DNA of 64,000 nucleotides from positions 8,203 through 72,202 of the forward strand of contig JAZOQB010000010.1 of assembly GCA_045655865.1 (NCBI GenBank). The letters run 5' to 3'. The stretch comes from Eubacteriales bacterium (GTDB lineage: Bacteria > Bacillota > Clostridia > Oscillospirales > SIG627). The position numbers and the translations under genes are program-made. Shown in pieces: positions 3,746-37,988 of this stretch (position 1 is the stretch's first letter; each line of letters opens with the position of its first letter). Under the pieces are notes generated by a model. That model was not told the origin of the DNA. It ran no database searches and saw only the letters and a list, made by a program, of their open reading frames with translations.

Positions 3746-3760
3746 ACGGAGGAAACGGAT

Positions 3761-4231
3761 ATGATCTTATCCCAACGGATCGCCCTACTTTTGGAGGAGA
3801 TGCTGGAGGCGGCGGGAGGGGAACTTTCCATCGTGCGCAATGAGTTTGCATCCCGGATGGGGTGCGTGCCCAGTCAGATCAATTACGTGATCACATCCCG
3901 CTTTACTCCCGAGCGCGGGTACGTAGTGGAGAGCCGACGTGGGGGCGGAGGATTTATTCGCATCCGCAAGGTAAAGATGGGGCGGAATGAATACCTGATG
4001 CATTTTTACCATGCCATCTCTTCCGCCATTAACTTTGAGAGCGCTCGGGTCTTTGTGGGAGAGCTGATCTCCCAGTCCATTCTGGAACCCCGGGAGGGAA
4101 AGCTGCTGTTGGCGCTTCTCTCCGATCGGGCTCTGGATCAGGTCCGCAGGGAGGATCGGGACCGCTTGCGGGCGCAGCTGTTTCAGACAGCCATTTTACA
4201 AATGATTGCAGAAAGCGAGGAAAAACGATGA
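3761..4231 (+). CDS. ctsR: Class III stress-gene repressor CtsR
   Basis: MILSQRIALLLEEML..CVPSQINYVITSRFTPERGYVVESRRGGGGFIRI. The ATG at 3761 has an ACGGAGGA Shine-Dalgarno. The ORF-track start at 3677 would overlap the promoter. Confidence 0.9.
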   Translation: MILSQRIALLLEEMLEAAGGELSIVRNEFASRMGCVPSQINYVITSRFTPERGYVVESRRGGGGFIRIRKVKMGRNEYLMHFYHAISSAINFESARVFVGELISQSILEPREGKLLLALLSDRALDQVRREDRDRLRAQLFQTAILQMIAESEEKR

Positions 4232-16300: not shown

Positions 16301-16374
16301 TGGAGGCGCCACCCGGAATCGGACCGGGGATAAAGGTTTTGCAGACCTCTGCCTTACCGCTTGGCTATGGCGCC
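16301..16374 (-). tRNA. tRNA-Cys (anticodon GCA), CCA encoded
   Basis: My fold of the reverse strand GGCGCCATAGCCAAGCGGTAAGGCAGAGGTCTGCAAAACCTTTATCCCCGGTCCGATTCCGGGTGGCGCCTCCA gives a 7-bp acceptor stem, anticodon loop CTGCAAA, discriminator U and a 5-bp T stem. The T-loop reads TCCGATT, so position 55 is C. Confidence 0.9.
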
Positions 16375-25917: not shown

Positions 25918-26229
25918 ATGAAACTGGAAACGAGTACCAAGGACGGAGAGTATATCGTTCGGATCTCGGGGGACATCGACCACCACAGAGCCCCGGGGAT
26001 CCGGGAGGAGATCGACCGGGTTTTGGAAAAAACCCGACCCCGGCGCCTGGTTTTGGATCTGGGACAGACCGATTTTATGGATTCCTCCGGTCTGGGTCTG
26101 ATCTTGGGGCGGTTGAGAAAAACCGGAGAAATGGAAATTGCCATGACGCTGATCAACCCCAACCCCGCCGTGCAAAAGATCTTGCGCCTGGCGGGAGTGG
26201 AAAATATGCTGGATATTCGATATTTGTGA
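25918..26229 (+). CDS. spoIIAA: Anti-sigma-F factor antagonist SpoIIAA (STAS domain)
   Basis: 103 aa with DFMDSSGLGLILG, directly upstream of spoIIAB and sigF. Confidence 0.9.
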   Translation: MKLETSTKDGEYIVRISGDIDHHRAPGIREEIDRVLEKTRPRRLVLDLGQTDFMDSSGLGLILGRLRKTGEMEIAMTLINPNPAVQKILRLAGVENMLDIRYL

Positions 26230-26238
26230 GGAAGAGAC

Positions 26239-26673
26239 ATGAAGGAAATATTAAACTCTGCCCGGGTGCGGTTTCCCGCCTTGGGTGAAAACGAAAGCTT
26301 TGCCCGAATCTTGACCGCGGGCTTTTTGATGCATCTGGGGGTGACACCGGCGCTTCTTGCGGACTTAAAAACCGTGGTCAGCGAGGCTGTGACCAACGCC
26401 ATCGTTCACGGCTACCGGGGTCGGGACGGAAAAAATTCTTACATACTCCTGGAGCTGCGTTATTACAGCGATCGAACCTTGGTCATTGCCGTCACCGACC
26501 GAGGACAGGGGATCGAAAACGTGGATGAGGCCATGCAGCCCTTCTTTACCACCGACAAGGAAGGGGAGCGCAGCGGAATGGGACTTCCCATCATGCAGGC
26601 CTTTTCCGATTCCTTGCGTATCACGTCCCGCCCCGGATGCACCAAGGTGGTCATGCGAAAAAAGCTTCCATGA
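26239..26673 (+). CDS. spoIIAB: Anti-sigma-F factor SpoIIAB (serine kinase)
   Basis: 144 aa with EAVTNAIVHGY and DRGQGIENV..ERSGMGL HATPase motifs. Confidence 0.9.
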   Translation: MKEILNSARVRFPALGENESFARILTAGFLMHLGVTPALLADLKTVVSEAVTNAIVHGYRGRDGKNSYILLELRYYSDRTLVIAVTDRGQGIENVDEAMQPFFTTDKEGERSGMGLPIMQAFSDSLRITSRPGCTKVVMRKKLP

Positions 26674-27386
26674 GTTCCTACGTCAACGATCCCCAGACCC
26701 TTCTTTTGGCCAAGGGGGGCGATCGGGTTGCCATGGAAAGCGTGGTTACCACCAATCTTGGACTGGTGAAAAGCATTGCGCTGCGATTTGTTGGACGGGG
26801 AGCGGAACTGGAGGATCTGATTCAGATCGGAACCATCGGGATGATCAAGGCGATCCTAGGCTTTGATCCGGAAAGAGAATGCCGCTTTACCACCTACGCC
26901 GTGCCTCTCATTATGGGAGAGATCAAACGCTTTCTGCGAGACGACGGATGGATCAAGATAGGCCGGGAAACCAAACAAAACGCGGCCCAGATCTTCCGTT
27001 TTGCGGAAGAGTTTGAAAAGATGAGCGGTCAGGCACCCACCATGGAGACCATTTGCGAAAAGCTTGGGCTGGAAGAGGAAAAGGTAGTTCTGGCCATGGA
27101 ATCCGCCCGACCGGCGCTGTCCCTTTACGAAGAAGATGAGAACACCGGCTTTTCTCCGGAAAAGATGATCGGGGAGGACAACATTGAAAAGAGCGTTGGA
27201 ACCATCGCTCTGCAAGAGGCGGTGGACGTTTTGCCCCAGGAGGAGAAAAAGCTGATCGTTCTACGGTATTTCAAAGGGTTGACCCAGTCGCAGACCGCTC
27301 GGATCCTGGGGATCACTCAGGTAAAGGTTTCCCGGGAGGAGAAGCGGATCTTAAAGAAAATGAAGCAATTTTTGACCGAATCTTGA
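26670..27386 (+). CDS. sigF: Sporulation sigma factor SigF
   Basis: Sigma-70 regions 2-4 (DLIQIGTIGMIKAI.., YAVPLIMGEIKRFLRDD, LTQSQTARILGITQVKVSREEKR). The ATG overlaps the spoIIAB stop. Confidence 0.9.
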   Translation: MSSYVNDPQTLLLAKGGDRVAMESVVTTNLGLVKSIALRFVGRGAELEDLIQIGTIGMIKAILGFDPERECRFTTYAVPLIMGEIKRFLRDDGWIKIGRETKQNAAQIFRFAEEFEKMSGQAPTMETICEKLGLEEEKVVLAMESARPALSLYEEDENTGFSPEKMIGEDNIEKSVGTIALQEAVDVLPQEEKKLIVLRYFKGLTQSQTARILGITQVKVSREEKRILKKMKQFLTES

Positions 27387-27425
27387 TCCTGTGGCCGACG
27401 GCGTCCGTCTTTTTTTTGACGGGGC

Positions 27426-27454
27426 TTGACTTTTTATAAAAACTTTACTATAAT
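27426..27454 (+). promoter_or_regulatory. Consensus sigma-A promoter of the aromatic operon leader
   Basis: TTGACT 27426-27431, 17 nt, TATAAT 27449-27454. Confidence 0.7.
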
Positions 27455-27484
27455 AAAGAAAATTTCCCGGAAAGGAGAGGCGGT

Positions 27485-27565
27485 ATGCTGAAGAATTTTT
27501 TTGGTCTTTATACTCGATTTTATTACTTTACTGAGGCGGACTGCCTGGGTCACCGGAAAAAATAA
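27485..27565 (+). CDS. Candidate 26-aa Phe/Tyr-rich leader peptide MLKNFFGLYTRFYYFTEADCLGHRKK
   Basis: My own translation; the ORF is below the track cutoff. AAAGGAGAGG Shine-Dalgarno 5 nt before the ATG. 7 of 26 codons are Phe or Tyr, including F-Y-Y-F. It sits between the promoter and an intrinsic terminator. Confidence 0.55.
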   Translation: MLKNFFGLYTRFYYFTEADCLGHRKK

Positions 27566-27582
27566 GTTTTTTCCTACGGTTC

Positions 27583-27638
27583 AGAAGTCCGCAATTTGTG
27601 TATTCTCCGAAAGAATGCAAGGTTGCGGATTTTTTTTT
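27583..27638 (+). terminator. Attenuator terminator upstream of the aromatic operon
   Basis: TCCGCAA (27588-27594) pairs with TTGCGGA (27623-27629), with an inner ATTCT/AGAAT helix, followed by nine T (27630-27638). An alternative GCGGACT (27536-27542) : AGTCCGC (27586-27592) pairing would sequester the 5-prime arm. Confidence 0.75.
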
Positions 27639-27669
27639 GAATTTTAACGAAGATTTTGGAGGATTTTGT

Positions 27670-28857
27670 ATGATCTCACAGGAAATGCTCCGTTTGGGGC
27701 GTCAGAGCTCGGTGATTCGCGCCATTTCTGAATACGGTGCGCAAAGGAAAAAAGAGATCGGAGCGGAAAACGTATTTGACTTTTCTCTGGGGAATCCCAG
27801 TATCCCTGCACCGGATGCCATTGAAAAGACCATGATAGATCTGGTGGAGAATACGCCTGCGGCCCTCCTTCACGGTTACACCTCTTCTGCGGGGGATATG
27901 GGCGTGCGGGAGAAGATTGCCGCTTTTCTCCAGGAAAGATTTCACTTTCCTGCCCAAGCCGGTCTGATCTACATGACCTGCGGTGCTGCGGCCAGTCTCA
28001 CCGTGGCTCTTCACGCTCTTTTAAATCCCGGAGACCAGGTGGTGGTTCCCACTCCCTTTTTCCCCGAATATCGGGTCTTTATTGAAAAGGCCGGGGGAAA
28101 ACTGGTGGAAGCTCTCTGTCATCAACCCTCTTTCCAGCTCAACCTTGATGAAATGGAAAAGGCCATTACAGAGAAGACCAAGGTGGTTATGCTCAACTCC
28201 CCCAACAACCCCACCGGCGCGGTATACAGCCGTGAGAGTCTGGAGGCGCTTTCTGCCCTCTTAAAGAAAAAAGAGGAAGAATACGGCACGCAGATCTTCC
28301 TTCTTACCGACGAGCCCTACCGGGAACTCTACTACGGTACCGAGCCTTTGCCTTGGATCCCCAGCCTTTACCACCGGACTTTGGTGGCCTACTCTTACAG
28401 CAAATCTCTCTCTCTGCCCGGGGAGCGGATCGGGTACCTTTTGGTCTCCCCTGAGTGCCCCGACGCCGGGGACGTTTTCGCCGCCGTTTGCGGTGCAGGC
28501 CGAAGCCTTGGCTTTGTGTGTGCGCCCTCTCTTTGGCAGAGAGTGGTGGGAAAAAATCAGGGACTGGTCGGTGACGTGGAAGCTTACCGAAAGAACCGGG
28601 ATCTTCTCTCTGCGGCCCTACAGGAAATGGGTTATGTGGTCACCCCTCCCGCCGGCGCCTTTTACCTTTTTGTCAAGGCTCTGGAGGAGGACGCGAACGA
28701 GTTTTCCCAGCGGGCGAAAAAGCACGAGCTTCTTCTGGTTCCCAGCGATTCCTTCGGGGTCCGGGGCTTTGTGCGTATCTCCTACTGCGTGGCGCGGGAG
28801 ACCATTGAACGGTCCTTGCCGGCGTTCCGAGCGCTTATGGAGGAATACAAAAAATGA
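27670..28857 (+). CDS. Class I/II PLP-dependent aminotransferase (aspartate/aromatic type)
   Basis: NSPNNPTG and YSYSKSLSLPGERIGY (PLP lysine). GGAGG Shine-Dalgarno before the ATG at 27670. The earlier track start overlaps the terminator. Confidence 0.85.
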   Translation: MISQEMLRLGRQSSVIRAISEYGAQRKKEIGAENVFDFSLGNPSIPAPDAIEKTMIDLVENTPAALLHGYTSSAGDMGVREKIAAFLQERFHFPAQAGLIYMTCGAAASLTVALHALLNPGDQVVVPTPFFPEYRVFIEKAGGKLVEALCHQPSFQLNLDEMEKAITEKTKVVMLNSPNNPTGAVYSRESLEALSALLKKKEEEYGTQIFLLTDEPYRELYYGTEPLPWIPSLYHRTLVAYSYSKSLSLPGERIGYLLVSPECPDAGDVFAAVCGAGRSLGFVCAPSLWQRVVGKNQGLVGDVEAYRKNRDLLSAALQEMGYVVTPPAGAFYLFVKALEEDANEFSQRAKKHELLLVPSDSFGVRGFVRISYCVARETIERSLPAFRALMEEYKK

Positions 28858-29948
28858 AAAACAATCTCTTGGAAGAAGCCCGGGGGGATATTGACCGTAT
28901 TGACCGGGCTATGGCGACCCTTTTTGAAGAAAGAATGGAAGCTGCAGGCAAGGTTGCCTTATATAAAAAAGAGACGGGCATGCCCATTTTTGACCCTGCC
29001 CGGGAGGAAGAGATCATCAATCGGGGCGCACAGCGGATCCAAAACGAGACGGTTCGTGGGTATTACGTGAACTTTCTTCGCACGCAGATGGATCTTTCCA
29101 AGGCTTATCAGTCCCGACTGCTCTATGGAATGCACGTGGCCTTTTCCGGAGTGCCGGGGGCGTTTGCGGAAATTGCCGCAAAGCGTATTTTCCCTCACGG
29201 CGTGACCATGGGCTTCCCGGATTTTGAAGAGGCGTACCGCGCCGTGGAAGACGGCCGGTGTGACGTGGCGGTGCTACCTTTGGAAAACAGTACCAACGGC
29301 GACGTGGGGACGGTGATGGATCTGGCCTTTTTCGGCTCTCTTTCCGTTAACGGCATTTACGACGTGGAAGTCAAACAGAATCTTTTGGCAAAACTTGGAG
29401 CGCATCTTTCGGATATCAAAACTGTGATCAGTCATCCTCAGGCCCTTGGACAGTGCGCTCCCTTTTTGAAAAAGGGCGGGTTTGAAACCGTGGAGGCGGC
29501 AAACACCGCCGTAGCGGCGAAAATGGTAGCAAATTCACAGGAAATGTCCCTGGCGGCCATTGGAAGCCAGGAGGCCGCCGAGGAGTACGGGCTTCAGGTT
29601 CTAAGATCTAACATTCACGAAAAAGGGGGGAACACCACCCGCTTTGCCGTGTTCTCTCGGACGAAAAAGGACCCGTCCCCCACCGATCGCCAGTTTTTGA
29701 TGGTCTTTACGGTGAAAAACGAGGCCGGGGCTTTGGCCAAGGCTGTTTCCGCCATCGGAACGCACGGCTTTAATCTTCGGGCGATCAAGAGCAGACCCAC
29801 AAAGAAGCTCTCCTGGGAGTACTACTTCTTCTGTGAGGGCGAGGGGGATCTGAATTCACCCCAGGGCGAGGAAATGCTCTCCCGACTGAACGGGGTGTGT
29901 AGCGATCTGAAGGTTCTGGGCTCTTTTGAAAAAGAAAGTGTTTTGTAG
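28854..29948 (+). CDS. pheA: Bifunctional chorismate mutase / prephenate dehydratase with ACT domain
   Basis: N-terminal CM helices (IDRIDRAMATLFEERMEAAGKVALYK), a PDT domain (LPLENSTNGDV, TRFAVF) and an ACT region with IKSRPTKK. ATGA overlap with the aminotransferase gene. Confidence 0.85.
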   Translation: MKNNLLEEARGDIDRIDRAMATLFEERMEAAGKVALYKKETGMPIFDPAREEEIINRGAQRIQNETVRGYYVNFLRTQMDLSKAYQSRLLYGMHVAFSGVPGAFAEIAAKRIFPHGVTMGFPDFEEAYRAVEDGRCDVAVLPLENSTNGDVGTVMDLAFFGSLSVNGIYDVEVKQNLLAKLGAHLSDIKTVISHPQALGQCAPFLKKGGFETVEAANTAVAAKMVANSQEMSLAAIGSQEAAEEYGLQVLRSNIHEKGGNTTRFAVFSRTKKDPSPTDRQFLMVFTVKNEAGALAKAVSAIGTHGFNLRAIKSRPTKKLSWEYYFFCEGEGDLNSPQGEEMLSRLNGVCSDLKVLGSFEKESVL

Positions 29949-29955
29949 GTAAGGT

Positions 29956-30972
29956 ATGATTCTTTCTGTTAATACACGGGACAAAAGTTATCCCATCTAT
30001 CTGGAGAGGGGCGTGCTGGATCGGGCAGGAACCCTGTTCTCCTTTGCACGCAGATGCATGATCATAACAGACGATAACATTCCAAAAGAATATCTGGACG
30101 CCCTTTCCCGGCAATGCGGCGAGCCCCATATTTTTGTGATCCGGGCGGGGGAGGAATCCAAGTCCCTTTCCACCTTTGAGGAAATTTTAGGTGAAATGCT
30201 CACTTTCGGCTTTACTCGTTCTGACTGCGTGATCGCCCTGGGGGGCGGTGTGGTGGGAGACCTGGCAGGATTTGTCGCCTCCGCTTTTCAAAGGGGCGTG
30301 GATTTTTACAATATTCCTACCACCATTCTTTCCCAGGTGGATTCCTCCATTGGCGGAAAGGTGGCGGTCAATTTCCGTGGCTTGAAAAACATGGTGGGCG
30401 CTTTCTACCCTCCCAAAGGGGTGCTCATTGATCCGGACACCTTAAAGACCCTTCCCCAAAGGCAAATTGCAAACGGTCTGGCGGAAGCGGTGAAAATGGC
30501 TTTGACTTTTGACCGGGAGCTTTTTTCCCTCTTTGAAACCGCATCTCCCATGGAAAATCTGGATCTTATCATCGAAAAAAGCCTTTTGGCCAAGAAGACG
30601 GTGGTGGAGGAGGACGAGAGGGAGACCGGTCTGAGAAGAGTTCTCAATTTCGGGCACACCGTAGCCCACGCGCTGGAAAGCGAGAGCCATAAGACGGACA
30701 GACCCTTGTATCACGGCGAGGCTGTGGCCCTGGGTATGATCCCCATGTGCAGTGAACCGGTAAAAGAGCGCTTGCTTTCCGTTTTAACAAAGCTCGGTCT
30801 TCCCACCGTTTGGGGAGGAGACGTGGAAAAGCTGATAGAGGCCATGGGACATGACAAGAAAATGAGCGGAAAACAGATCTGTCTGATCCGAGTGGATCAG
30901 GTGGGTTCTTTCCGGATGGAAACGCTGTCTTTTGCCGCATTTTCAGAAGAAGTGAAAGGCTATAAATTATGA
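29956..30972 (+). CDS. aroB: 3-dehydroquinate synthase
   Basis: GGGVVGDLAGFVAS, DSSIGGKVAVN, NFGHTVAHALE. Confidence 0.9.
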   Translation: MILSVNTRDKSYPIYLERGVLDRAGTLFSFARRCMIITDDNIPKEYLDALSRQCGEPHIFVIRAGEESKSLSTFEEILGEMLTFGFTRSDCVIALGGGVVGDLAGFVASAFQRGVDFYNIPTTILSQVDSSIGGKVAVNFRGLKNMVGAFYPPKGVLIDPDTLKTLPQRQIANGLAEAVKMALTFDRELFSLFETASPMENLDLIIEKSLLAKKTVVEEDERETGLRRVLNFGHTVAHALESESHKTDRPLYHGEAVALGMIPMCSEPVKERLLSVLTKLGLPTVWGGDVEKLIEAMGHDKKMSGKQICLIRVDQVGSFRMETLSFAAFSEEVKGYKL

Positions 30973-32066
30973 AAAACACCTTTGGATGCGCCATTACCCT
31001 CACTCTTTTCGGAGAGAGCCACGGAGAGGAGATCGGCTGCGTGCTGGACGGGCTTGCGCCTGGGATCGCCGTTTCGGAAGAAGAGATCGCCCGTCTTCTT
31101 TCTTTGCGCCGACCTCAGGGCGCCGTTTCTACTGCCCGTCAGGAGCCCGACCCTTTCCGAATCGTCAGTGGCGTGTATCAGGGACGGACTACGGGAACGC
31201 CCCTTGCCATTCTGATTCCCAATCTTACCCAGAGATCCTCGGATTATGAAAGACAAACCAAACTTCGTCCCGGCCATGCGGATTTTACGGCGGAAATGAA
31301 GTATCACGGTTTTCAGGACCCCAGAGGAGGGGGCCATTTTAGCGGAAGGATCACCGCGCCCCTGGTGGCCGCAGGTGCCATCCTCCTATCTGCCCTTCGG
31401 GAAAAGGGCATTGTCATTGGCACTCATATGGCTTCTTGCGGCCAGGTTTCCGACCGGCCTTTTGCCGATCTGGGCTCTGACATCGCCTCGCTTTCTACCC
31501 GAGCCTTCCCCGTTTTGGATCACAATGCGGCAAAGGCCATGGAAGAGGAAATTTTGACGGCAAAAAAAGAGGGAGACAGCGTGGGCGGCGTTTTGGAGAC
31601 TGCCGTTCTCGGTCTGCCTGCCGGGGTGGGAGAGCCTTGGTTTGACACCCTGGAGAGTCTTCTCTCCCACGCGCTCTTTGCCATTCCCGCCGTCAAGGGA
31701 GTGGAATTCGGGAAAGGATTTGCTCTGGCAGGACTGCGCGGCAGTCAGGCCAACGACGCCTTTTGTGTTGAAAACGGTAACATACAGACCCGAACCAATC
31801 ACAACGGCGGCATCAACGGCGGCATTTCCAACGGAATGCCACTGATCTTTCGCTGTGCCGTCAAGCCCACCCCCACCCTTTCCCGGGAGCAGGATACGGT
31901 GGATCTTCTCACCGGAGAAGAATGTACCATAGCTTCCCGAGGCAGGCACGACCCTTGTATCGTTCACCGAGCCCGGGTCGTGGTGGACAGTATGACGGCG
32001 CTTACGTTGGCCGATGCCCTCACGCTTCGCTTTGGTACGGATTATCTTTCCGGAGGAACGCGATGA
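30969..32066 (+). CDS. aroC: Chorismate synthase
   Basis: FGESHG, RPGHADF, GRHDPCIV motifs. ATGA overlap with aroB. Confidence 0.9.
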   Translation: MKNTFGCAITLTLFGESHGEEIGCVLDGLAPGIAVSEEEIARLLSLRRPQGAVSTARQEPDPFRIVSGVYQGRTTGTPLAILIPNLTQRSSDYERQTKLRPGHADFTAEMKYHGFQDPRGGGHFSGRITAPLVAAGAILLSALREKGIVIGTHMASCGQVSDRPFADLGSDIASLSTRAFPVLDHNAAKAMEEEILTAKKEGDSVGGVLETAVLGLPAGVGEPWFDTLESLLSHALFAIPAVKGVEFGKGFALAGLRGSQANDAFCVENGNIQTRTNHNGGINGGISNGMPLIFRCAVKPTPTLSREQDTVDLLTGEECTIASRGRHDPCIVHRARVVVDSMTALTLADALTLRFGTDYLSGGTR

Positions 32067-33295
32067 AGTACGGCTTGCTTGGAGAAAAACTGGGGCATAG
32101 TTTTTCCGCACTCATTCACGCAAGGCTGGGGCTTTACCAATACCAGCTTTACCCTGTGGCAAAAGAAGATTTTTCCCTTTTTATGGAGCGCCGGGATTTT
32201 TCCGGGATCAACGTTACCATTCCCTATAAAAAAGACGTGATCGCCTACTTGAAAGAAATCAGCCCCGAGGCATCTGTTTGCGGTGCAGTAAATACTATTG
32301 TCAACCGGAACGGGGAGCTGTTTGGTTTTAATACGGATATTCTGGGATTACAGGCCCTGCTGAACAAGACGGGGGTCAGCCTTTCCGGGAAAAACGTTCT
32401 GATTCTGGGATCCGGCGGCACTTCCGGTACTGCCTTGGCGCTTTGCCAAAAGCTGGGAGCCCGATCGGCAGAGAGGCTCTCCCGCACCGGAAAAGAGGGG
32501 AGCCTGACCTATCGGGAGGCCGCGACCCGTGGGGATACCCAGGTCATCATCAACACCACCCCTTGCGGAATGTATCCGCAGATCGACGCGTGCCCCATCT
32601 CTCTGTCCTCCTTTCCCCATCTTGAGGCGGTGGCGGACGCGGTGTACAATCCGCTGAAAAGCCAGCTGGTTGTGGAGGGAGAAAAACGCGGGGTCCCCAG
32701 TGTGGGGGGCTTGTTTATGCTGGTGGCCCAGGCGGTTTACGCCGCTGGGATCTTCACCGAAAGAAAAGATCTGGAAGACCGGATCTGTCCTATTTATGAA
32801 GAACTTTTAAAAGAAAAACAAAACATCGTTCTCATCGGTATGCCGGGATCCGGAAAAAGCACCATTGGCCGGGCTTTGGCGAAGAGATTGGGAAAAGAAT
32901 TTGTAGACAGCGACGAGCAGATCGTAAAGATGGCGGAAGAGTCGATCCCGGAGATCTTTGCAAAAGAGGGAGAGGCATCTTTCCGGGACCGGGAGAGCCG
33001 GGCTATCCGGGAGTTATCTGCCCGACAGGGGGTAGTCATTGCCACCGGTGGCGGCGCCGTTCTTCGGGAAAAGAATCTGGATTTGCTTCGGCAAAATGGG
33101 ATCCTGGTCTTTCTGGACGCGCCTCTGGAGAGTCTTCGCGCCACCGCGGATCGGCCGCTTTCCTCTGATTTTGAGTCCCTAAAACAGCGCTACGAAGAAC
33201 GCTATGAGATCTATTGCCGGGCGGCAGATTACCGAATCCCGGTGAGTAGGAACGTGGAAGAAAATGTTTGTGCCATCATAAAGGAGCTTTCATGA
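32063..33295 (+). CDS. aroE/aroK: Fused shikimate dehydrogenase (N-terminal) / shikimate kinase (C-terminal)
   Basis: MKYGLLGEKLGHSFSALIH.., NVTIPYK, GSGGTSG (AroE part), then IVLIGMPGSGKSTIGRALAKRLGKEFVDSD (AroK Walker A). The ATG at 32063 overlaps the aroC stop. Confidence 0.85.
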   Translation: MKYGLLGEKLGHSFSALIHARLGLYQYQLYPVAKEDFSLFMERRDFSGINVTIPYKKDVIAYLKEISPEASVCGAVNTIVNRNGELFGFNTDILGLQALLNKTGVSLSGKNVLILGSGGTSGTALALCQKLGARSAERLSRTGKEGSLTYREAATRGDTQVIINTTPCGMYPQIDACPISLSSFPHLEAVADAVYNPLKSQLVVEGEKRGVPSVGGLFMLVAQAVYAAGIFTERKDLEDRICPIYEELLKEKQNIVLIGMPGSGKSTIGRALAKRLGKEFVDSDEQIVKMAEESIPEIFAKEGEASFRDRESRAIRELSARQGVVIATGGGAVLREKNLDLLRQNGILVFLDAPLESLRATADRPLSSDFESLKQRYEERYEIYCRAADYRIPVSRNVEENVCAIIKELS

Positions 33296-33732
33296 AGATA
33301 CTGATCATCAACGGCCCGAACCTGAATTTTTTGGGGATTCGGGAGCCCGAGCATTACGGAAAAGAAAGCTATGAAGATCTTTGCCGAGATATTCGTGACC
33401 ACGCCCGGAAACGGGGCGTGGAGGTGGAGATCTTCCAGTCCAACCACGAGGGGGATTTGGTAGAAGCCATCCAGGGAGCATACAAAAAAGCGGATGGGAT
33501 CGTCATCAACCCCGCCGCTTACACACACACCAGCGTGGCGATCCTGGATGCGGTAAAAGCCGTGGGCGTGCCCACCGTGGAGGTTCACATTTCCGATCTT
33601 TCTCAAAGGGAAGCGTTTCGGCAGGTCAGCTACGTTCGCCGGGCTTGCATTGCTACTATTGCAGGACACGGTTTTGCGGGGTATTTGGAGGCGATGGACC
33701 TTTTGATCTCCCCGCCGGAGAAGAGGGCATGA
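33292..33732 (+). CDS. aroQ: Type II 3-dehydroquinate dehydratase
   Basis: MKILIINGPNLNFLGIREPEHYG.., NPAAYTHTSVA, EVHISD. Confidence 0.9.
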   Translation: MKILIINGPNLNFLGIREPEHYGKESYEDLCRDIRDHARKRGVEVEIFQSNHEGDLVEAIQGAYKKADGIVINPAAYTHTSVAILDAVKAVGVPTVEVHISDLSQREAFRQVSYVRRACIATIAGHGFAGYLEAMDLLISPPEKRA

Positions 33733-34940
33733 CCGTTCGCTTTTCGCCCTCTTTTGCCCGGGGAGAAGTTTGGGCGCCTCCGTCGAAAAGCATGGCTCAC
33801 CGGGGACTGATCGCCGCCGCCATGGCGGATGGGGAGAGTTTTTTGTCACCCATCGCACCGTCTCAGGATATGCTCGCTACCATGGATGCACTGAATGCTT
33901 TGGGAGCGCGTTTTTCCCGAGAAAAAGATGGGATTTTGGTCCGGGGCATCCCTTTTCCTGAAAATACGGGGAAGGCGCTTTGCTGTCGGGAGAGCGGAAG
34001 TACCCTGCGCTTTCTTTTGCCCCTTTGCCTTTTAACGGGAGAAAAAATGACCTTTCTGGGCGCACCGCGCCTGATGGAAAGACCTCTTTTTGTATATGAA
34101 GATCTTTGCCGGTCCAGGGGCTTTCTTTACGAAAAAAGGGAAGAGAGCCTTACCGTTCAGGGGAAACTTACACCGGGAAGATACTGCGTGCCGGGAGACG
34201 TTTCCAGCCAGTTTATCACAGGCCTTCTCTTTGCTCTTTCCCTTCTTCCTCAGGACAGCTGTCTTGTAGTGACAGGGAAGATGGAAAGCGAGTCCTACGT
34301 GTCAATGACCCTTTTTGCCATGGAAGAGTTTGGAGTGAAGATCCATCGCCGGGGACAGGAATTTTACATTCCCGGAGGGCAACGGTACACGCCCAGGCAA
34401 TGGCGCGTGGAGGGAGATTTTTCCAATGCGGCCTTTTTGGATGGATTCAATCTTTTGGGGGGAGACGTGAAGGTCTTGGGGCTGAGGGACACTTCTCTGC
34501 AAGGAGACCGGGTCTACCGGGAGCATTTTGCCGCCATCCGTTCCGGGTGTCCTACCATTGATCTTCGGGATTGTCCGGATCTGGCGCCGGTTCTTTTCGC
34601 ACTGGCATCCTATTTTTACGGGGCAAGGTTTACCGGCACCGCACGCCTTCGCTTAAAGGAGAGTGACCGGGCTTTGGCGATGAAAGAGGAGCTGGCCAAA
34701 TGTGGCGTGGAGATCACGGTTATGGAAAATGAAGTTTTGGTGCCGGGAGGAGCTCTTCGAGCGCCCACAGAGCCGATCTTCTCTCACAACGATCATCGGA
34801 TCGCAATGGCCATGGCTCTTCTTCTCAGCAGACTTGGCGGAGAAATTTGCGGGGCTGGGGCCGTAAGCAAAAGCTACCCGGAGTTTTTTGAAACCATTTG
34901 GAAACTTGGAATCGAAGGAATCGAAGATGAAACTGAATAA
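33729..34940 (+). CDS. aroA: 3-phosphoshikimate 1-carboxyvinyltransferase (EPSP synthase)
   Basis: PPSKSMAHR, LRLKESDR, NDHRIAMA motifs. ATGA overlap with aroQ. Confidence 0.9.
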   Translation: MTVRFSPSFARGEVWAPPSKSMAHRGLIAAAMADGESFLSPIAPSQDMLATMDALNALGARFSREKDGILVRGIPFPENTGKALCCRESGSTLRFLLPLCLLTGEKMTFLGAPRLMERPLFVYEDLCRSRGFLYEKREESLTVQGKLTPGRYCVPGDVSSQFITGLLFALSLLPQDSCLVVTGKMESESYVSMTLFAMEEFGVKIHRRGQEFYIPGGQRYTPRQWRVEGDFSNAAFLDGFNLLGGDVKVLGLRDTSLQGDRVYREHFAAIRSGCPTIDLRDCPDLAPVLFALASYFYGARFTGTARLRLKESDRALAMKEELAKCGVEITVMENEVLVPGGALRAPTEPIFSHNDHRIAMAMALLLSRLGGEICGAGAVSKSYPEFFETIWKLGIEGIEDETE

Positions 34941-35802
34941 AAATGCGGATACCACCATTCTGATCGTGGGATTGGGACTTTTGGGTGGCAGTTACGCCAG
35001 AGCGTTGAAGAAAAAAGGATACACTGTTTTTGCCATTGAAAAAAAGAACGCTTCGGTGGAGTATGCTCTGGAACACGGCTTGATCGATCGGGGAAGCACC
35101 CGGGTGGAGGAGAGCTTTTTGCAGGAGGCGAGCCTTGTGATCTTCGCCTTGTACCCTCATGTATTTCTGGATTGGATCGAAGAATACGGTCACCTTTTGA
35201 AAAAGGGAACCGTGCTCACCGACGTGACCGGTGTAAAGGGGAGCGTGGTGCGGCGTGTTCAGGATCAGCTTCCCCCGGGAGTGGAATACATTGCCGCGCA
35301 CCCCATGGCAGGGCGCGAGGTGGGTGGTGTGGAAAACAGCGATGACGCCATTTTCCAAGGTGCCAACTACATTGTGGTTCCCACGGAGAAGAATACCCAC
35401 GAGGGTGTGGAGATCTGCAAGGAGCTGGGACGGGAATTGGGCTTTGCAACCGTTTCCGTTTTAACGCCCGAGAAGCACGATGAGATGATCGCCTTTCTAT
35501 CTCAGCTCACTCACTGTATTGCCATCAGCCTGATGTGTGCCGGGGACGATACGGGTCTTGTCAATTACACCGGCGACTCCTTCCGGGATTTGACTCGGAT
35601 CGCTCGGATCCAGGAAGATCTCTGGAGCGAGCTGTTTTTGTTAAACAAAGACGCTCTTGTTCGGCAAATGGACAATTTTGAAAAAGTCTTTCACGCCCTT
35701 TCCCAGGCGGTTCGGGAGGAGAGAGTGGATGTGATGAAGGACATGATGCGTCTTTCTACGGCCCGCCGGGCTCTGTTTGATCGAAAAGGAGAGAAACAAT
35801 GA
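34927..35802 (+). CDS. tyrA: Prephenate dehydrogenase
   Basis: ILIVGLGLLGGSYARAL (NAD fold), AAHPMAG, TRIA.. motifs. 14-nt overlap with aroA. Confidence 0.85.
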   Translation: MKLNKNADTTILIVGLGLLGGSYARALKKKGYTVFAIEKKNASVEYALEHGLIDRGSTRVEESFLQEASLVIFALYPHVFLDWIEEYGHLLKKGTVLTDVTGVKGSVVRRVQDQLPPGVEYIAAHPMAGREVGGVENSDDAIFQGANYIVVPTEKNTHEGVEICKELGRELGFATVSVLTPEKHDEMIAFLSQLTHCIAISLMCAGDDTGLVNYTGDSFRDLTRIARIQEDLWSELFLLNKDALVRQMDNFEKVFHALSQAVREERVDVMKDMMRLSTARRALFDRKGEKQ

Positions 35803-36824
35803 AATTCATCCGAAAATTGCCCGTTCCCCAGGAGATCAAGAAGCTTTTCCCTTTGAAATCGGAGTGGGAAGCGGTGCGGGATGCGAAAATTCAGGAACTG
35901 CGGGACATTTTTGAAGGCAAGAGCCAGAAGTTTGTGCTTGTCATCGGTCCTTGCTCTGCGGATAACCGGGACGCGGTATTTTCTTATATGGAAAAATTGG
36001 CCCGAGCCCAGGAGGAGACAAAAGACAAGCTTCTTATCATCCCCAGGGTCTATACCAATAAGCCCCGTACCACCGGAGAGGGCTACAAAGGCATGCTCCA
36101 CCAGCCGGATCCCACAGCCCGCCCGGACATGCTCAAAGGGATCATTGCCATTCGGGAGCTGCATCGCACCGCCCTTTCTGACTACGGCTTTTCCTGCGCA
36201 GATGAAATGCTATATCCGGAAAACCACCGCTACCTCTCGGACCTTTTGGCGTACATTGCCGTGGGTGCCAGGAGCGTGGAAAATCAGCAGCATCGCCTTA
36301 CCGCCAGCGGACTGGACGTTCCCGTGGGCATGAAGAATCCCACCGGAGGGGACCTGACGGTTTTGATGAACTCCATCCACGCCGCTCAGGGGGGGCACAC
36401 CTTCCTATACCGAGGATGGGAGGTTCACAGCGACGGCAACCCCTACGCTCACGCCATCATGCGGGGATATGTGGACATAACGGGAAAATACGTTTCCAAT
36501 TATCACTATGAAGACCTGGCACGACTCTATGAGACCTATCAGCAGTCGTGTTTGAAAAATCCTGCCGTGATCGTGGATACCAACCACGCCAATTCCGGTA
36601 AGCAGTACTTAGAGCAGATCCGGATTGCCAAAGACGTGGTCTATAGCTGCAACCACAACGAGCAGATCCGTAAAATGGTCAAGGGGCTTATGATCGAAAG
36701 TTATCTGGAGGACGGAGCCCAGAGCATTGGAGAGAATGTTTTCGGAAAATCCATTACCGATCCGTGCCTTGGCTGGGAAAAGAGCCACGATCTGATCTTG
36801 CACATTGCGGATACGATCCGGTAA
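35799..36824 (+). CDS. 3-deoxy-7-phosphoheptulonate (DAHP) synthase, class I
   Basis: VIGPCSADN, KPRTT, GMKNPTGG motifs, 341 aa. ATGA overlap with tyrA. Confidence 0.8.
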   Translation: MKFIRKLPVPQEIKKLFPLKSEWEAVRDAKIQELRDIFEGKSQKFVLVIGPCSADNRDAVFSYMEKLARAQEETKDKLLIIPRVYTNKPRTTGEGYKGMLHQPDPTARPDMLKGIIAIRELHRTALSDYGFSCADEMLYPENHRYLSDLLAYIAVGARSVENQQHRLTASGLDVPVGMKNPTGGDLTVLMNSIHAAQGGHTFLYRGWEVHSDGNPYAHAIMRGYVDITGKYVSNYHYEDLARLYETYQQSCLKNPAVIVDTNHANSGKQYLEQIRIAKDVVYSCNHNEQIRKMVKGLMIESYLEDGAQSIGENVFGKSITDPCLGWEKSHDLILHIADTIR

Positions 36825-36860
36825 CTTGTAAAAATGGGATATGCATCACTGAGAGGGACT

Positions 36861-36911
36861 ATGAAGATTGATTTTCACACCCATACGTTTCCGGAGAAGA
36901 TCGCCGGTGCG
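36861..36911 (+). pseudogene. Possible remnant of the 5-prime end of an amidohydrolase/PHP-type gene
   Basis: GAGAGGGA Shine-Dalgarno plus ATG. The first 15 codons, MKIDFHTHTFPEKIA, look like the start of metal-dependent hydrolases. The rest of that frame is only antisense to the nuclease gene and runs through a terminator. Confidence 0.3.
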
Positions 36912-36979
36912 GCGCTTTTCCGGAAGAGATGCTCAGTTCGGAAGATTTTTTCAAAAAAATTATCTTTCAAAGCAAAAGA

Positions 36980-37011
36980 CCTATTCCAACAGGATGGAAT
37001 AGGCCTTTTTT
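36980..37011 (+). terminator. Terminator at the end of the aromatic operon
   Basis: CCTATTCCA acagga TGGAATAGG followed by CC and T6. Confidence 0.75.
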
Positions 37012-37073
37012 CTTTTATATTGTTTGTGGCGCCAAAATTGCGCCGCCGGGCTTTCCCGAAAGGATCGGGGAGG

Positions 37074-37988
37074 TCAATCCTGAAAACAGCTTTGGCAAAC
37101 AGAGTAGCCCTGGGCCACCAGGTCCTCGGGAGAACCCACATGGTCTTTCCGGTTTTTGGGGGATATGGAGGAAACGGACGAGCAGTGGGGGCGATGGATC
37201 TTTTTGGAATTGGTGTTGAGAACAAGGTGCTCGCCGGTCTCTTTGGGATCGGATTCTGTGGGGTAGTTTTCCGGCCCCTGGGCGGCCAGCGTGCTTTCTC
37301 CCGTGGCGTAATCAATGGTGATTCCGGGCTGGACGTTGTAGCAGAAAACGTGGAAACAGATGCCTTCCCCGCCATCCTCAACGGACCATCCTTCCATGAC
37401 CACGCCCCGGGCCAGAAGATCGTTGCCCTCAAACACGGGGGTGACTCGGTACATGACATGGTTTCCCGTTTCCTTGACGTAGTCTGCCACCATGTTTTCA
37501 AAGGGAAGCTGGCCTTCTACGTTGAGATAGCGAGTTCCCGTGATGAGATTTTTGGGATTGGCGTTTTCCCCGGTGAGCTGAAACCCGATGAGGTGACAGC
37601 GGTTGTAAAGATATTTTCCGTCTACAATGTCATACCTTACCGTTTGCCAACCGGAGGGCTTTACCTGCCCGATGCTCCCTCGTTCCTGGGTGGGCATCAG
37701 GTCCCGGCCAATGCTGGCAACGCTGACTCCGCACCGGCCAAGCGCGTCCAATTCCGAATAGAACTCAAAGGACTCTTCGCTGATCTCTTCCGGGGTAAAA
37801 TCGGGTTGATTGTTCTTTAAAATAACAAAAGGAGAGCCGGAAAATGAGGGGAGATGTGCCAAAGTGGCATTTTCTCCGCTGCTTTCCAAAGAAGGCGGCT
37901 CGGTTGCGGGAGAAGAAGGAAAGGTGCAGCCCGAAAAAAGAATGACCAGGGTCAAAAAGAGGGGAGCGAGGCGGAAAAGGTTTTTCAT
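37074..37988 (-). CDS. Secreted lipoprotein DNA/RNA non-specific endonuclease (EndA/NucM-like) with C-terminal Cys-rich metal-binding tail
   Basis: Lipobox LFSGC. Core is LDALGRCG..YNRCHLIGFQLTGENANPKNLITGTRYLN. Tail is HRPHCSS..GYSVCQSCF. Confidence 0.75.
   Translation of the reverse strand: MKNLFRLAPLFLTLVILFSGCTFPSSPATEPPSLESSGENATLAHLPSFSGSPFVILKNNQPDFTPEEISEESFEFYSELDALGRCGVSVASIGRDLMPTQERGSIGQVKPSGWQTVRYDIVDGKYLYNRCHLIGFQLTGENANPKNLITGTRYLNVEGQLPFENMVADYVKETGNHVMYRVTPVFEGNDLLARGVVMEGWSVEDGGEGICFHVFCYNVQPGITIDYATGESTLAAQGPENYPTESDPKETGEHLVLNTNSKKIHRPHCSSVSSISPKNRKDHVGSPEDLVAQGYSVCQSCFQD

Follow-up and report, generated by a model that had tools for sequence, protein, structure and literature searches.

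How do uncultured Clostridia control the operon that makes phenylalanine (Phe) and tyrosine (Tyr)? This question is raised by a 64,000-nucleotide (nt) stretch of DNA from Eubacteriales bacterium (GenBank assembly GCA_045655865.1, contig JAZOQB010000010.1, positions 8,203 to 72,202), hereafter the window, whose numbering is used throughout. A leader region at 27426-27669 precedes an aromatic amino-acid operon, and an initial annotation had read it as a leader-peptide attenuator, in which the position of a ribosome on a short Phe/Tyr-rich open reading frame (ORF) decides between an antiterminator and a terminator. Our analysis supports this reading: leaders with a Shine-Dalgarno-preceded ORF and a run of Phe/Tyr (F/Y) codons are present in relatives, and the helices covary. 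Since a short Phe/Tyr frame and competing hairpins are conserved in many uncultured gut Clostridia, we conclude that the leader very probably attenuates transcription in the classical, ribosome-sensed way and belongs to an uncatalogued family. What is new is the family, which is well conserved and not in Rfam 15; the mechanism itself is classical.

Competing hairpins in the leader

The leader begins with a sigma-70-type promoter on the forward strand (27426-27454), in which the -35 hexamer TTGACT (27426-31) and the -10 hexamer TATAAT (27449-54) are separated by a 17-nt spacer. This promoter, already pointed out in the initial annotation, is an 11/12 match and the top of four promoter-like sites in 12 kb, and transcription is predicted to start near 27461. 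It comes after the terminator of the preceding sigF-like gene (GACGGCGTCCGTC followed by T8, 27397-27417). No second promoter-like site was found between the leader terminator and the start of the aminotransferase gene that heads the operon.

The Shine-Dalgarno sequence AAAGGAGAGG (27471-27480, forward strand), whose GGAG (27474-77) lies 7 nt before the ATG, precedes an ORF of 26 codons plus TAA (27485-27565), whose predicted product is MLKNFFGLYTRFYYFTEADCLGHRKK. Both had been noted before, together with the F-Y-Y-F run, and both are present. Seven of the 26 codons specify F or Y: the regulatory run UUU UAU UAC UUU (F-Y-Y-F, 27518-27529), two further Phe codons at 27497-27502 and a Tyr codon at 27509-11. 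Directly 5' of the run stands the arginine (Arg) codon CGA (27515-27517). On both strands of the 64-kb window, this leader ORF is the sole short ORF that is preceded by a Shine-Dalgarno sequence and contains at least four consecutive F/Y codons. Its stop codon TAA (27563-65) is located in the loop of a GGAAAAAA/TTTTTTCC hairpin (27555-74).

Unconstrained folding of the RNA from 27534 to 27594 gave a single hairpin of -24.4 kcal/mol, the antiterminator, which is 57 nt long (27536-27592). Its 5' strand (27536-27551) lies inside the ORF and consists of the region 2 (R2) core GCGGACU (27536-42) and the strand CUGGGUC (27545-51), and its 3' strand (27578-27592) consists of GGUUCAG (27578-84) and the region 3 (R3) core AGUCCGC (27586-92). 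The helices GCGGACU/AGUCCGC and CUGGGUC/GGUUCAG are topped by the apical hairpin GGAAAAAA/UUUUUUCC (27555-27574), whose loop holds the UAA at 27563-65. The initial annotation had paired GCGGACT with AGTCCGC as the antiterminator. These segments are complementary and their pairing excludes the terminator, as claimed, but the 7 bp form only the base of the longer hairpin. In the same way, the A/U hairpin around the stop codon is present, but it is the tip of the antiterminator and not a separate hairpin within its loop.

The intrinsic terminator (27585-27638, forward strand) is a 22-bp hairpin (27585-27632, -23.1 kcal/mol) running into U9 (27630-38). The TCCGCAA/TTGCGGA stem and the nine T described earlier are there, although that stem is merely the core of the 22-bp hairpin. 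The R3 core doubles as the base of the terminator 5' arm, and the two structures have 27585-92 in common, so they are mutually exclusive. A comparison of the conformer energies, suggested as a check in the initial annotation, places the antiterminator at -24.4 and the terminator at -23.1 kcal/mol. Once the antiterminator has formed, the terminator hairpin is limited to its upper part, which GCGGA separates from the U tract.

We also folded the whole leader. Its minimum free energy (MFE) structure (27461-27640) has -53 kcal/mol (z = -2.65 versus shuffles) and combines the terminator and the A/U stop-codon hairpin with a helix between 27535-46 (GGCGGACUGCCU) and region 1, AGGCGGUAUGCU (27478-27489, forward strand), which comprises the spacer between Shine-Dalgarno sequence and AUG and the start codon itself. 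The region 1:2 hairpin amounts to -17.0 kcal/mol and overlaps R2, which makes region 1 a candidate anti-antiterminator.

The modelled position of a ribosome decides which structure is favoured. When a ribosome was placed at aromatic codon 1, 2 or 3, the nascent RNA up to 27594 folded into the antiterminator without constraint, and a ribosome placed at the fourth aromatic codon masked R2. With a footprint of about 30 nt, a general-knowledge value, masked at run codons 1-3 the MFE structure was the antiterminator, and with the same footprint masked at the stop codon it was the terminator.

Conservation of the leader and its helices

Homologous leaders were recovered by two routes. In the first, the aminotransferase served as a protein anchor and one genome per species was scanned, which yielded 35 loci; this route was extended by look-ups of nine aminotransferase homologues with 59-79% identity. 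Within the protein-anchored set, 11 lineages carry a homologous leader (the window and loci L002, L007, L036, L037, L039, L040, L085, L086, L087 and L089). The second route was independent and scanned metagenomes by a degenerate DNA pattern only, giving 44 hits. Among these, 25 are intergenic, and all 25 are leaders: 24 precede aminotransferase-pheA-aroB-aroC... or, in L051 and L074, pheA-aroB directly, and L052, the remaining one, is truncated by the end of its contig. Long ORFs contain the other 19 hits, which were rejected as chance matches. A single protein-coding sequence (…GCCGATATTTTTATTCCGCTTGACGGACTGCTTGCATC…) that recurs in human-gut contigs and is unrelated to the leader accounts for seven of these chance hits (L055, L058, L060, L062, L064, L065 and L076).

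The two routes together gave 29 distinct leaders, which represent at least 12 lineages of uncultured Clostridia from gut and rumen. Among the source names of the carriers are Candidatus Avispirillum and 'Ruminococcaceae/Oscillospiraceae bacterium'. A promoter, a Shine-Dalgarno sequence, an ATG or GTG start, an ORF of 19-28 codons, a run of 3-7 F/Y codons, and a stop codon followed by a terminator are common to all 29. The -35 TTGAC and the -10 element are kept in 7 aligned leaders. The N- and C-terminal parts of the leader ORF are variable, and its frame stays open despite insertions and deletions.

Wherever sequence is available, the genes downstream are (aminotransferase)-pheA-aroB-aroC-aroE/K-aroA-tyrA-DAHP synthase, and wherever enough of it is available, the operon holds both pheA and tyrA and no trp genes. 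Among the protein-anchored loci and the window, the leader is present at 11 of 15 aminotransferase genes that head an aro operon and at none of the 26 that do not. The leader is tied exclusively to the aromatic amino-acid operon.

A covariance model built from 20 other leaders, with the window left out, matched the window at 27515-27594 with 59.2 bits (E = 4e-9) and had no other significant match in the 64 kb. When 401 kb of control loci (leaderless aminotransferase loci and chance pattern hits) were searched with this model, the sole significant match was the truncated true leader L052.

The short ORFs are enriched in aromatic codons in all leaders: F and Y make up 30.5% of 669 leader codons, compared with 7.7% in neighbouring proteins. 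Codons for tryptophan (Trp) are absent from these 669. The F/Y codons of the runs are TTT, TTC, TAT and TAC (46, 1, 54 and 17 times), and changes between lineages are of the type TAT/TAC or TTT/TAT, the sole exception being a serine (Ser) codon, TCT, at run position four in one human-gut lineage (the closely related L044, L046 and L050). Run length varies by whole codons (FYY, FYYF, FFYY, YYYF, FFYYYF, YYFYYYF). This pattern indicates that the aromatic run is conserved as codons. R2 begins 4-8 nt 3' of the run. Without exception, the stop codon is found between the two cores, at a distance of 12-39 nt from the R2 core and 14-48 nt from the R3 core.

CGA directly precedes the run in 9 of the 11 protein-anchored lineages (the window, L002, L007, L036, L037, L039, L040, L086 and L089), and CGA accounts for just 3-11% of the Arg codons in these genomes. 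An Arg residue before the run in most lineages and a strongly conserved R-F-Y-Y core would also fit a nascent arrest peptide, R-F-Y-Y-F, which would respond to free Phe/Tyr from within the exit tunnel, much as TnaC responds to Trp, and not to tRNA charging. We consider such an arrest peptide highly improbable. Run length and the order of F and Y vary (FYY, FFYY, YYYF, FFYYYF, YYFYYYF), and Arg is absent in two lineages. Where Arg is present it is always the one codon, which argues for a constraint on nucleotides or codons rather than on the peptide. Moreover, arrest induced by the amino acid would give readthrough when Phe and Tyr are abundant, which is the wrong sign for a biosynthetic operon.

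The segment that follows the run behaves differently from a coding sequence. R2, CGGACUGYCUG, is near-invariant (27536-27548 in the window; columns 3-15 of alignment A4). Relative to the start codon it lies in one frame in 26 of the 29 leaders and in another in L036, L087 and L089. Since R2 is kept in two reading frames, it is constrained as RNA. We had considered the peptide '-ADCL-' after the run as a conserved peptide, and rejected it because these three leaders keep CGGACUG in a different frame.

To examine the helices across the family, we folded each nascent RNA to the end of R3 with a model ribosome placed at aromatic codon 2. The hairpin closed by R2:R3 is the unconstrained nascent-RNA MFE structure in 29 of 29 distinct leaders, and in 28 of 29 the R2:R3 duplex is stronger than with shuffled R2 (p <= 0.03). 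Many of the leaders are closely related, so these and the following numbers describe consistency and not independent events. In a gapless alignment anchored on CGGAC and CCG, 75.9% of antiterminator cells are paired, and shifting the partner by 1-3 columns lowers this share to 28-38%. Double changes occur in 8 of 16 pairs, and the covariation score of 0.203 (0.140 +/- 0.013 in shuffles) was reached by 0 of 500 shuffles. Examples include the seventh pair, U-A in the window and A-U in L086, as well as A-U in the human-gut group versus U-A in L002 and U-A versus C-G in L087.

RNAalifold found the antiterminator helix unsupervised in MAFFT alignments of each of two subgroups, and in the window-like subgroup it predicted 16 pairs, 8 of them with double changes. 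The helix was not recovered when all lineages were combined in one MAFFT alignment for RNAalifold, because the variable hairpin interior, whose sequence is not conserved, misaligns. The base helix of the terminator is paired in 88.5% of cells (19 leaders) versus 27-46% when slid, with C-G/U-A covariation. Compensatory changes are therefore present in both helices, which the initial annotation had proposed to look for in orthologous leaders along with the F/Y enrichment of the ORF. In addition, nearly all folded leaders have a small hairpin 3' of the coding part, with the stop codon in or beside it and a sequence that differs by lineage.

These data bear on the simplest alternative, namely that there is no conditional control. 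In that case the hairpin would act constitutively as a partial terminator, or would end a small transcript of its own, and the abundance of F/Y codons would simply reflect an A/T-rich leader; TTT and TAT triplets are frequent in such leaders. We give this explanation very little credence. The frame, the Shine-Dalgarno sequence and the F/Y run are kept across at least 12 lineages although the flanking leader sequence has completely diverged, and the antiterminator covaries. The operon has no promoter downstream of the terminator, and the element is found solely ahead of the aromatic operon.

We then compared the leader with known RNA families. No Rfam 15 family matched it at the gathering threshold, and at E <= 10 the region 27300-27800 gave chance-level matches only (CopA-like, 20.9 bits, and snoRNAs). 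Phe_leader (RF01859) had no match at the gathering threshold in the window or at E <= 10 in 27300-27800, and the Leu/phe leader (RF01743) had none in these window searches or in five other leaders of the family. For the T-box (RF00230), there was no Rfam match in the window or the five other leaders and no UGGNACC core in the leader. The whole leader contains just three (G/U)AG triplets, none of them in the run with 2-3 nt spacing that forms a TRAP site. The Rfam search suggested earlier as a check thus identified no known riboswitch or T-box model in this region, and the absence of a T-box claimed in the initial annotation holds. The sole match at the Rfam gathering score in the 64-kb window is a tRNA gene at 16304-16374 on the reverse strand.

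These searches are relevant to another alternative, in which a trans-acting factor (an RNA-binding protein, uncharged tRNA or a small ligand) acts on UUUUAUUAYU and/or CGGACUGYCUG to set the switch, and the ORF is incidental. Amino-acid operons of Firmicutes are commonly under T-box, TRAP or protein-mediated attenuation, and neither pairing nor coding fully accounts for how strongly R2 and the codon CGA are conserved. Nevertheless, no T-box, TRAP-type repeats or Rfam match was present, and the ORF, its Shine-Dalgarno sequence and its start codon are retained in all 29 distinct leaders. Changes in the U-rich segment almost only preserve Phe/Tyr or alter its length in whole-codon steps, with Ser at position four as the exception, and the antiterminator interior, the would-be ligand pocket, is not conserved in sequence. 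A trans-acting switch is, in our judgement, unlikely.

Proposed switch and its relation to known attenuators

Based on the anatomy of the leader and the established trpL/pheL model, we propose that the element is a ribosome-mediated transcription attenuator of the Phe/Tyr-shikimate operon, and we hold this reading with high confidence. The signal sensed would be the supply of charged tRNA-Phe and tRNA-Tyr, and the output would be readthrough into the operon.

Transcription would start near 27461, and a ribosome would load on the leader ORF. When Phe-tRNA or Tyr-tRNA is scarce, this ribosome would stall at run codons 1-3, or at the Phe-Phe or Tyr codons that precede the run, leaving R2 (27536-51) free to pair with 27578-92 before the 3' arm of the terminator is made. 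The antiterminator would sequester the base of the terminator 5' arm, and the polymerase would pass the U tract into the eight genes downstream. When both tRNAs are plentiful, the ribosome would reach the stop codon at the hairpin tip and on its way would open R2, the second helix and the apical hairpin. With R3 thus free to pair with 27623-32 (R4), the terminator would form and transcription would end near 27638. After release of the ribosome, or when the leader is not translated, the spacer between Shine-Dalgarno sequence and AUG (27478-89) could hold R2 and thereby favour termination.

The initial annotation had assumed that a ribosome at the stop codon occupies the antiterminator loop. Our model agrees that the terminator would form in this situation, but because the antiterminator 5' strand lies within the ORF, a ribosome that has moved past the F/Y codons must unwind the hairpin and not merely occupy its loop.

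Several points weigh against the proposed attenuator or against parts of it. Polymerase is reported to outrun ribosomes in Bacillus subtilis and other species (PMC13323073); under such conditions, an attenuator timed by the ribosome would depend on pausing or local coupling. As a candidate pause, the NusG-type motif TTNTTT (PMC12288461) occurs in the window at T7 27496-502 and T6 27567-72, but by eye neither position is conserved in other lineages, and we rejected it. Since many of the sequences are close relatives, the shuffle statistics make them look more independent than they are. Conservation is much stronger in R2 than in its partners R3 and R1, and R2 does not follow the U-A to C-G change of the terminator, so that 15 of 22 antiterminators contain an A.C mismatch. 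Neither this behaviour of R2 nor the near-fixed minor codon CGA follows from the simple attenuation model. Region 1:2 pairing is probable and only moderately supported: most lineages have 1:2 complementarity, with a shifting register and p values versus shuffled R1 from 0.004 to 0.74. Finally, four related operons (L001, L008, L011 and L015) have no such leader.

R2 itself matches G-10 and Y-1 of the elemental pause consensus quoted in PMC12288461; the window has G at -1. R2 (CGGACUGYCUG-Y-R) might thus double as a polymerase pause, and together with a CGA codon that slows the ribosome it would form a built-in timing device, by which a ribosome-sensed switch could operate even though polymerases in this lineage are expected to run ahead of ribosomes. 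We regard this idea as tentative and rather doubtful. If it were true, the element would serve as a compact natural probe of how transcription and translation are coupled in Clostridia. In any case, the proposed mechanism needs the lead ribosome to match the polymerase over about 100 nt, so the leader offers a natural test of coupling or pausing in a phylum with reported runaway transcription (PMC13323073).

The four operons that lack the leader differ in their upstream regions. L001 and L015 have a bare promoter in its place. L011 has an aminotransferase-pheA-aroB-aroC operon without a terminator-type leader in the region (~3760-3990) 5' of the aminotransferase start at 4001; beside the promoter, TCGTCATA(T/C) is directly repeated three times. 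Translated, these repeats resemble an ORF rich in F/Y (MYFFSYSSYFSSY...), and they may be a protein-binding site or reflect a different control mode. In L008, the region at ~1760-2020 before aminotransferase-pheA-aroC-aroE/K contains a GUCCGC...GCGGAUUUGUUUU hairpin and a 5' region with extensive structure. Neither a Phe/Tyr ORF nor an Rfam match was found there, and it may be a different, uncatalogued leader type.

Leader-peptide attenuation is well established in proteobacteria. Reports of it in Firmicutes are scattered, and T-boxes, riboswitches and RNA-binding proteins are the prevailing regulators there. A search for Phe/Tyr leaders of Clostridia or other Firmicutes in the searchable literature, which excludes subscription-only comparative-genomics papers, gave no result. 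Comparative genomics by Panina, Vitreschak, Gelfand and co-workers in 2003-2004 reportedly covered aromatic regulons and attenuators of Gram-positive bacteria.

The E. coli trpL leader is the basis of the four-region attenuation model. The element resembles it in that 1:2 and 3:4 pairing would follow completed or absent translation, and 2:3 pairing a stall at hungry codons, with alternative hairpins of similar stability. In contrast to trpL, where region 1 is the distal coding region and contains the regulatory codons, region 1 here is the moderately supported spacer between Shine-Dalgarno sequence and AUG, and the regulatory codons lie upstream of region 2. Within Firmicutes, the Leu/phe leader motif of Lactococcus (RF01743) is a leader-peptide-type attenuator with runs of leucine (Leu) or Phe codons. 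It differs from our element in taxon, downstream genes and sequence.

The pheL-pheA attenuator of E. coli and other gamma-proteobacteria (RF01859; PMC3082878) likewise has a short ORF with clustered aromatic codons, a terminator before the biosynthetic gene and a competing antiterminator that is set by the position where the ribosome stops. Here, however, the codons are a mixture of Phe and Tyr, whereas pheL uses Phe only, and the target is an eight-gene operon for the common shikimate pathway and both the Phe and the Tyr branch, whereas pheL controls pheA alone. The hosts also differ, being uncultured Clostridia, as do the stop codon at the antiterminator tip and a candidate region 1 that overlaps the ribosome-binding site of the leader.

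Attenuators with his leaders have been predicted in the Bacillus cereus group, Peptostreptococcaceae, other Eubacteriales and Erysipelotrichales, where they replace HisR or T-box control (PMC9413887). These predictions come from comparative genomics only and show 3-5 tandem cognate codons with terminator and antiterminator hairpins (PMC9413887). They are a precedent for patchy classical leader-peptide attenuators within Firmicutes, including Clostridia, although the amino acid, operon and sequences are different.

The downstream operon and its neighbourhood

The regulated operon (27670-36824, forward strand) contains eight genes, encoding a class I/II aminotransferase, chorismate mutase-prephenate dehydratase, AroB, AroC, an AroE-AroK fusion, AroA, prephenate dehydrogenase and DAHP synthase. 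The first of these genes begins with an ATG at 27670, not 27671. With mixed Phe and Tyr codons, the leader would govern in one operon the synthesis of both amino acids from central metabolites, and its recognition fills a gap in the aromatic amino-acid regulation of these Clostridia and improves the annotation of metagenome-assembled genomes.

A domain of 3-dehydroquinate dehydratase (aroD/aroQ) was not found in the operon (27670-36824), and its gene may be located elsewhere in the genome; all other steps from DAHP synthase to Phe and Tyr are encoded. The ORF at 31922-33295 encodes a fusion of shikimate dehydrogenase with shikimate kinase. Since the listed start of this aroE-aroK gene overlaps aroC by ~145 nt, the true start is probably near 32060.

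The initial annotation had counted nine genes. The putative ninth gene (36834-37820, forward strand, 328 aa) was rejected: it has no Pfam or NCBIfam match, and it is overlapped by a reverse-strand ORF (37074-37988) with the DNA/RNA non-specific endonuclease domain Endonuclea_NS_2 (PF13930, E = 4.6e-21). The operon therefore consists of eight genes, and its end is probably at 36824. A terminator-like hairpin is located at 36980-37003.

Directly upstream of the leader, at 25918-27386, we found an operon with spoIIAA-like (STAS), spoIIAB-like (HATPase) and SigF-family sigma factor genes, which is also present in L036, L037 and L040. This neighbourhood suggests that the host is a spore-former-type Clostridium relative.

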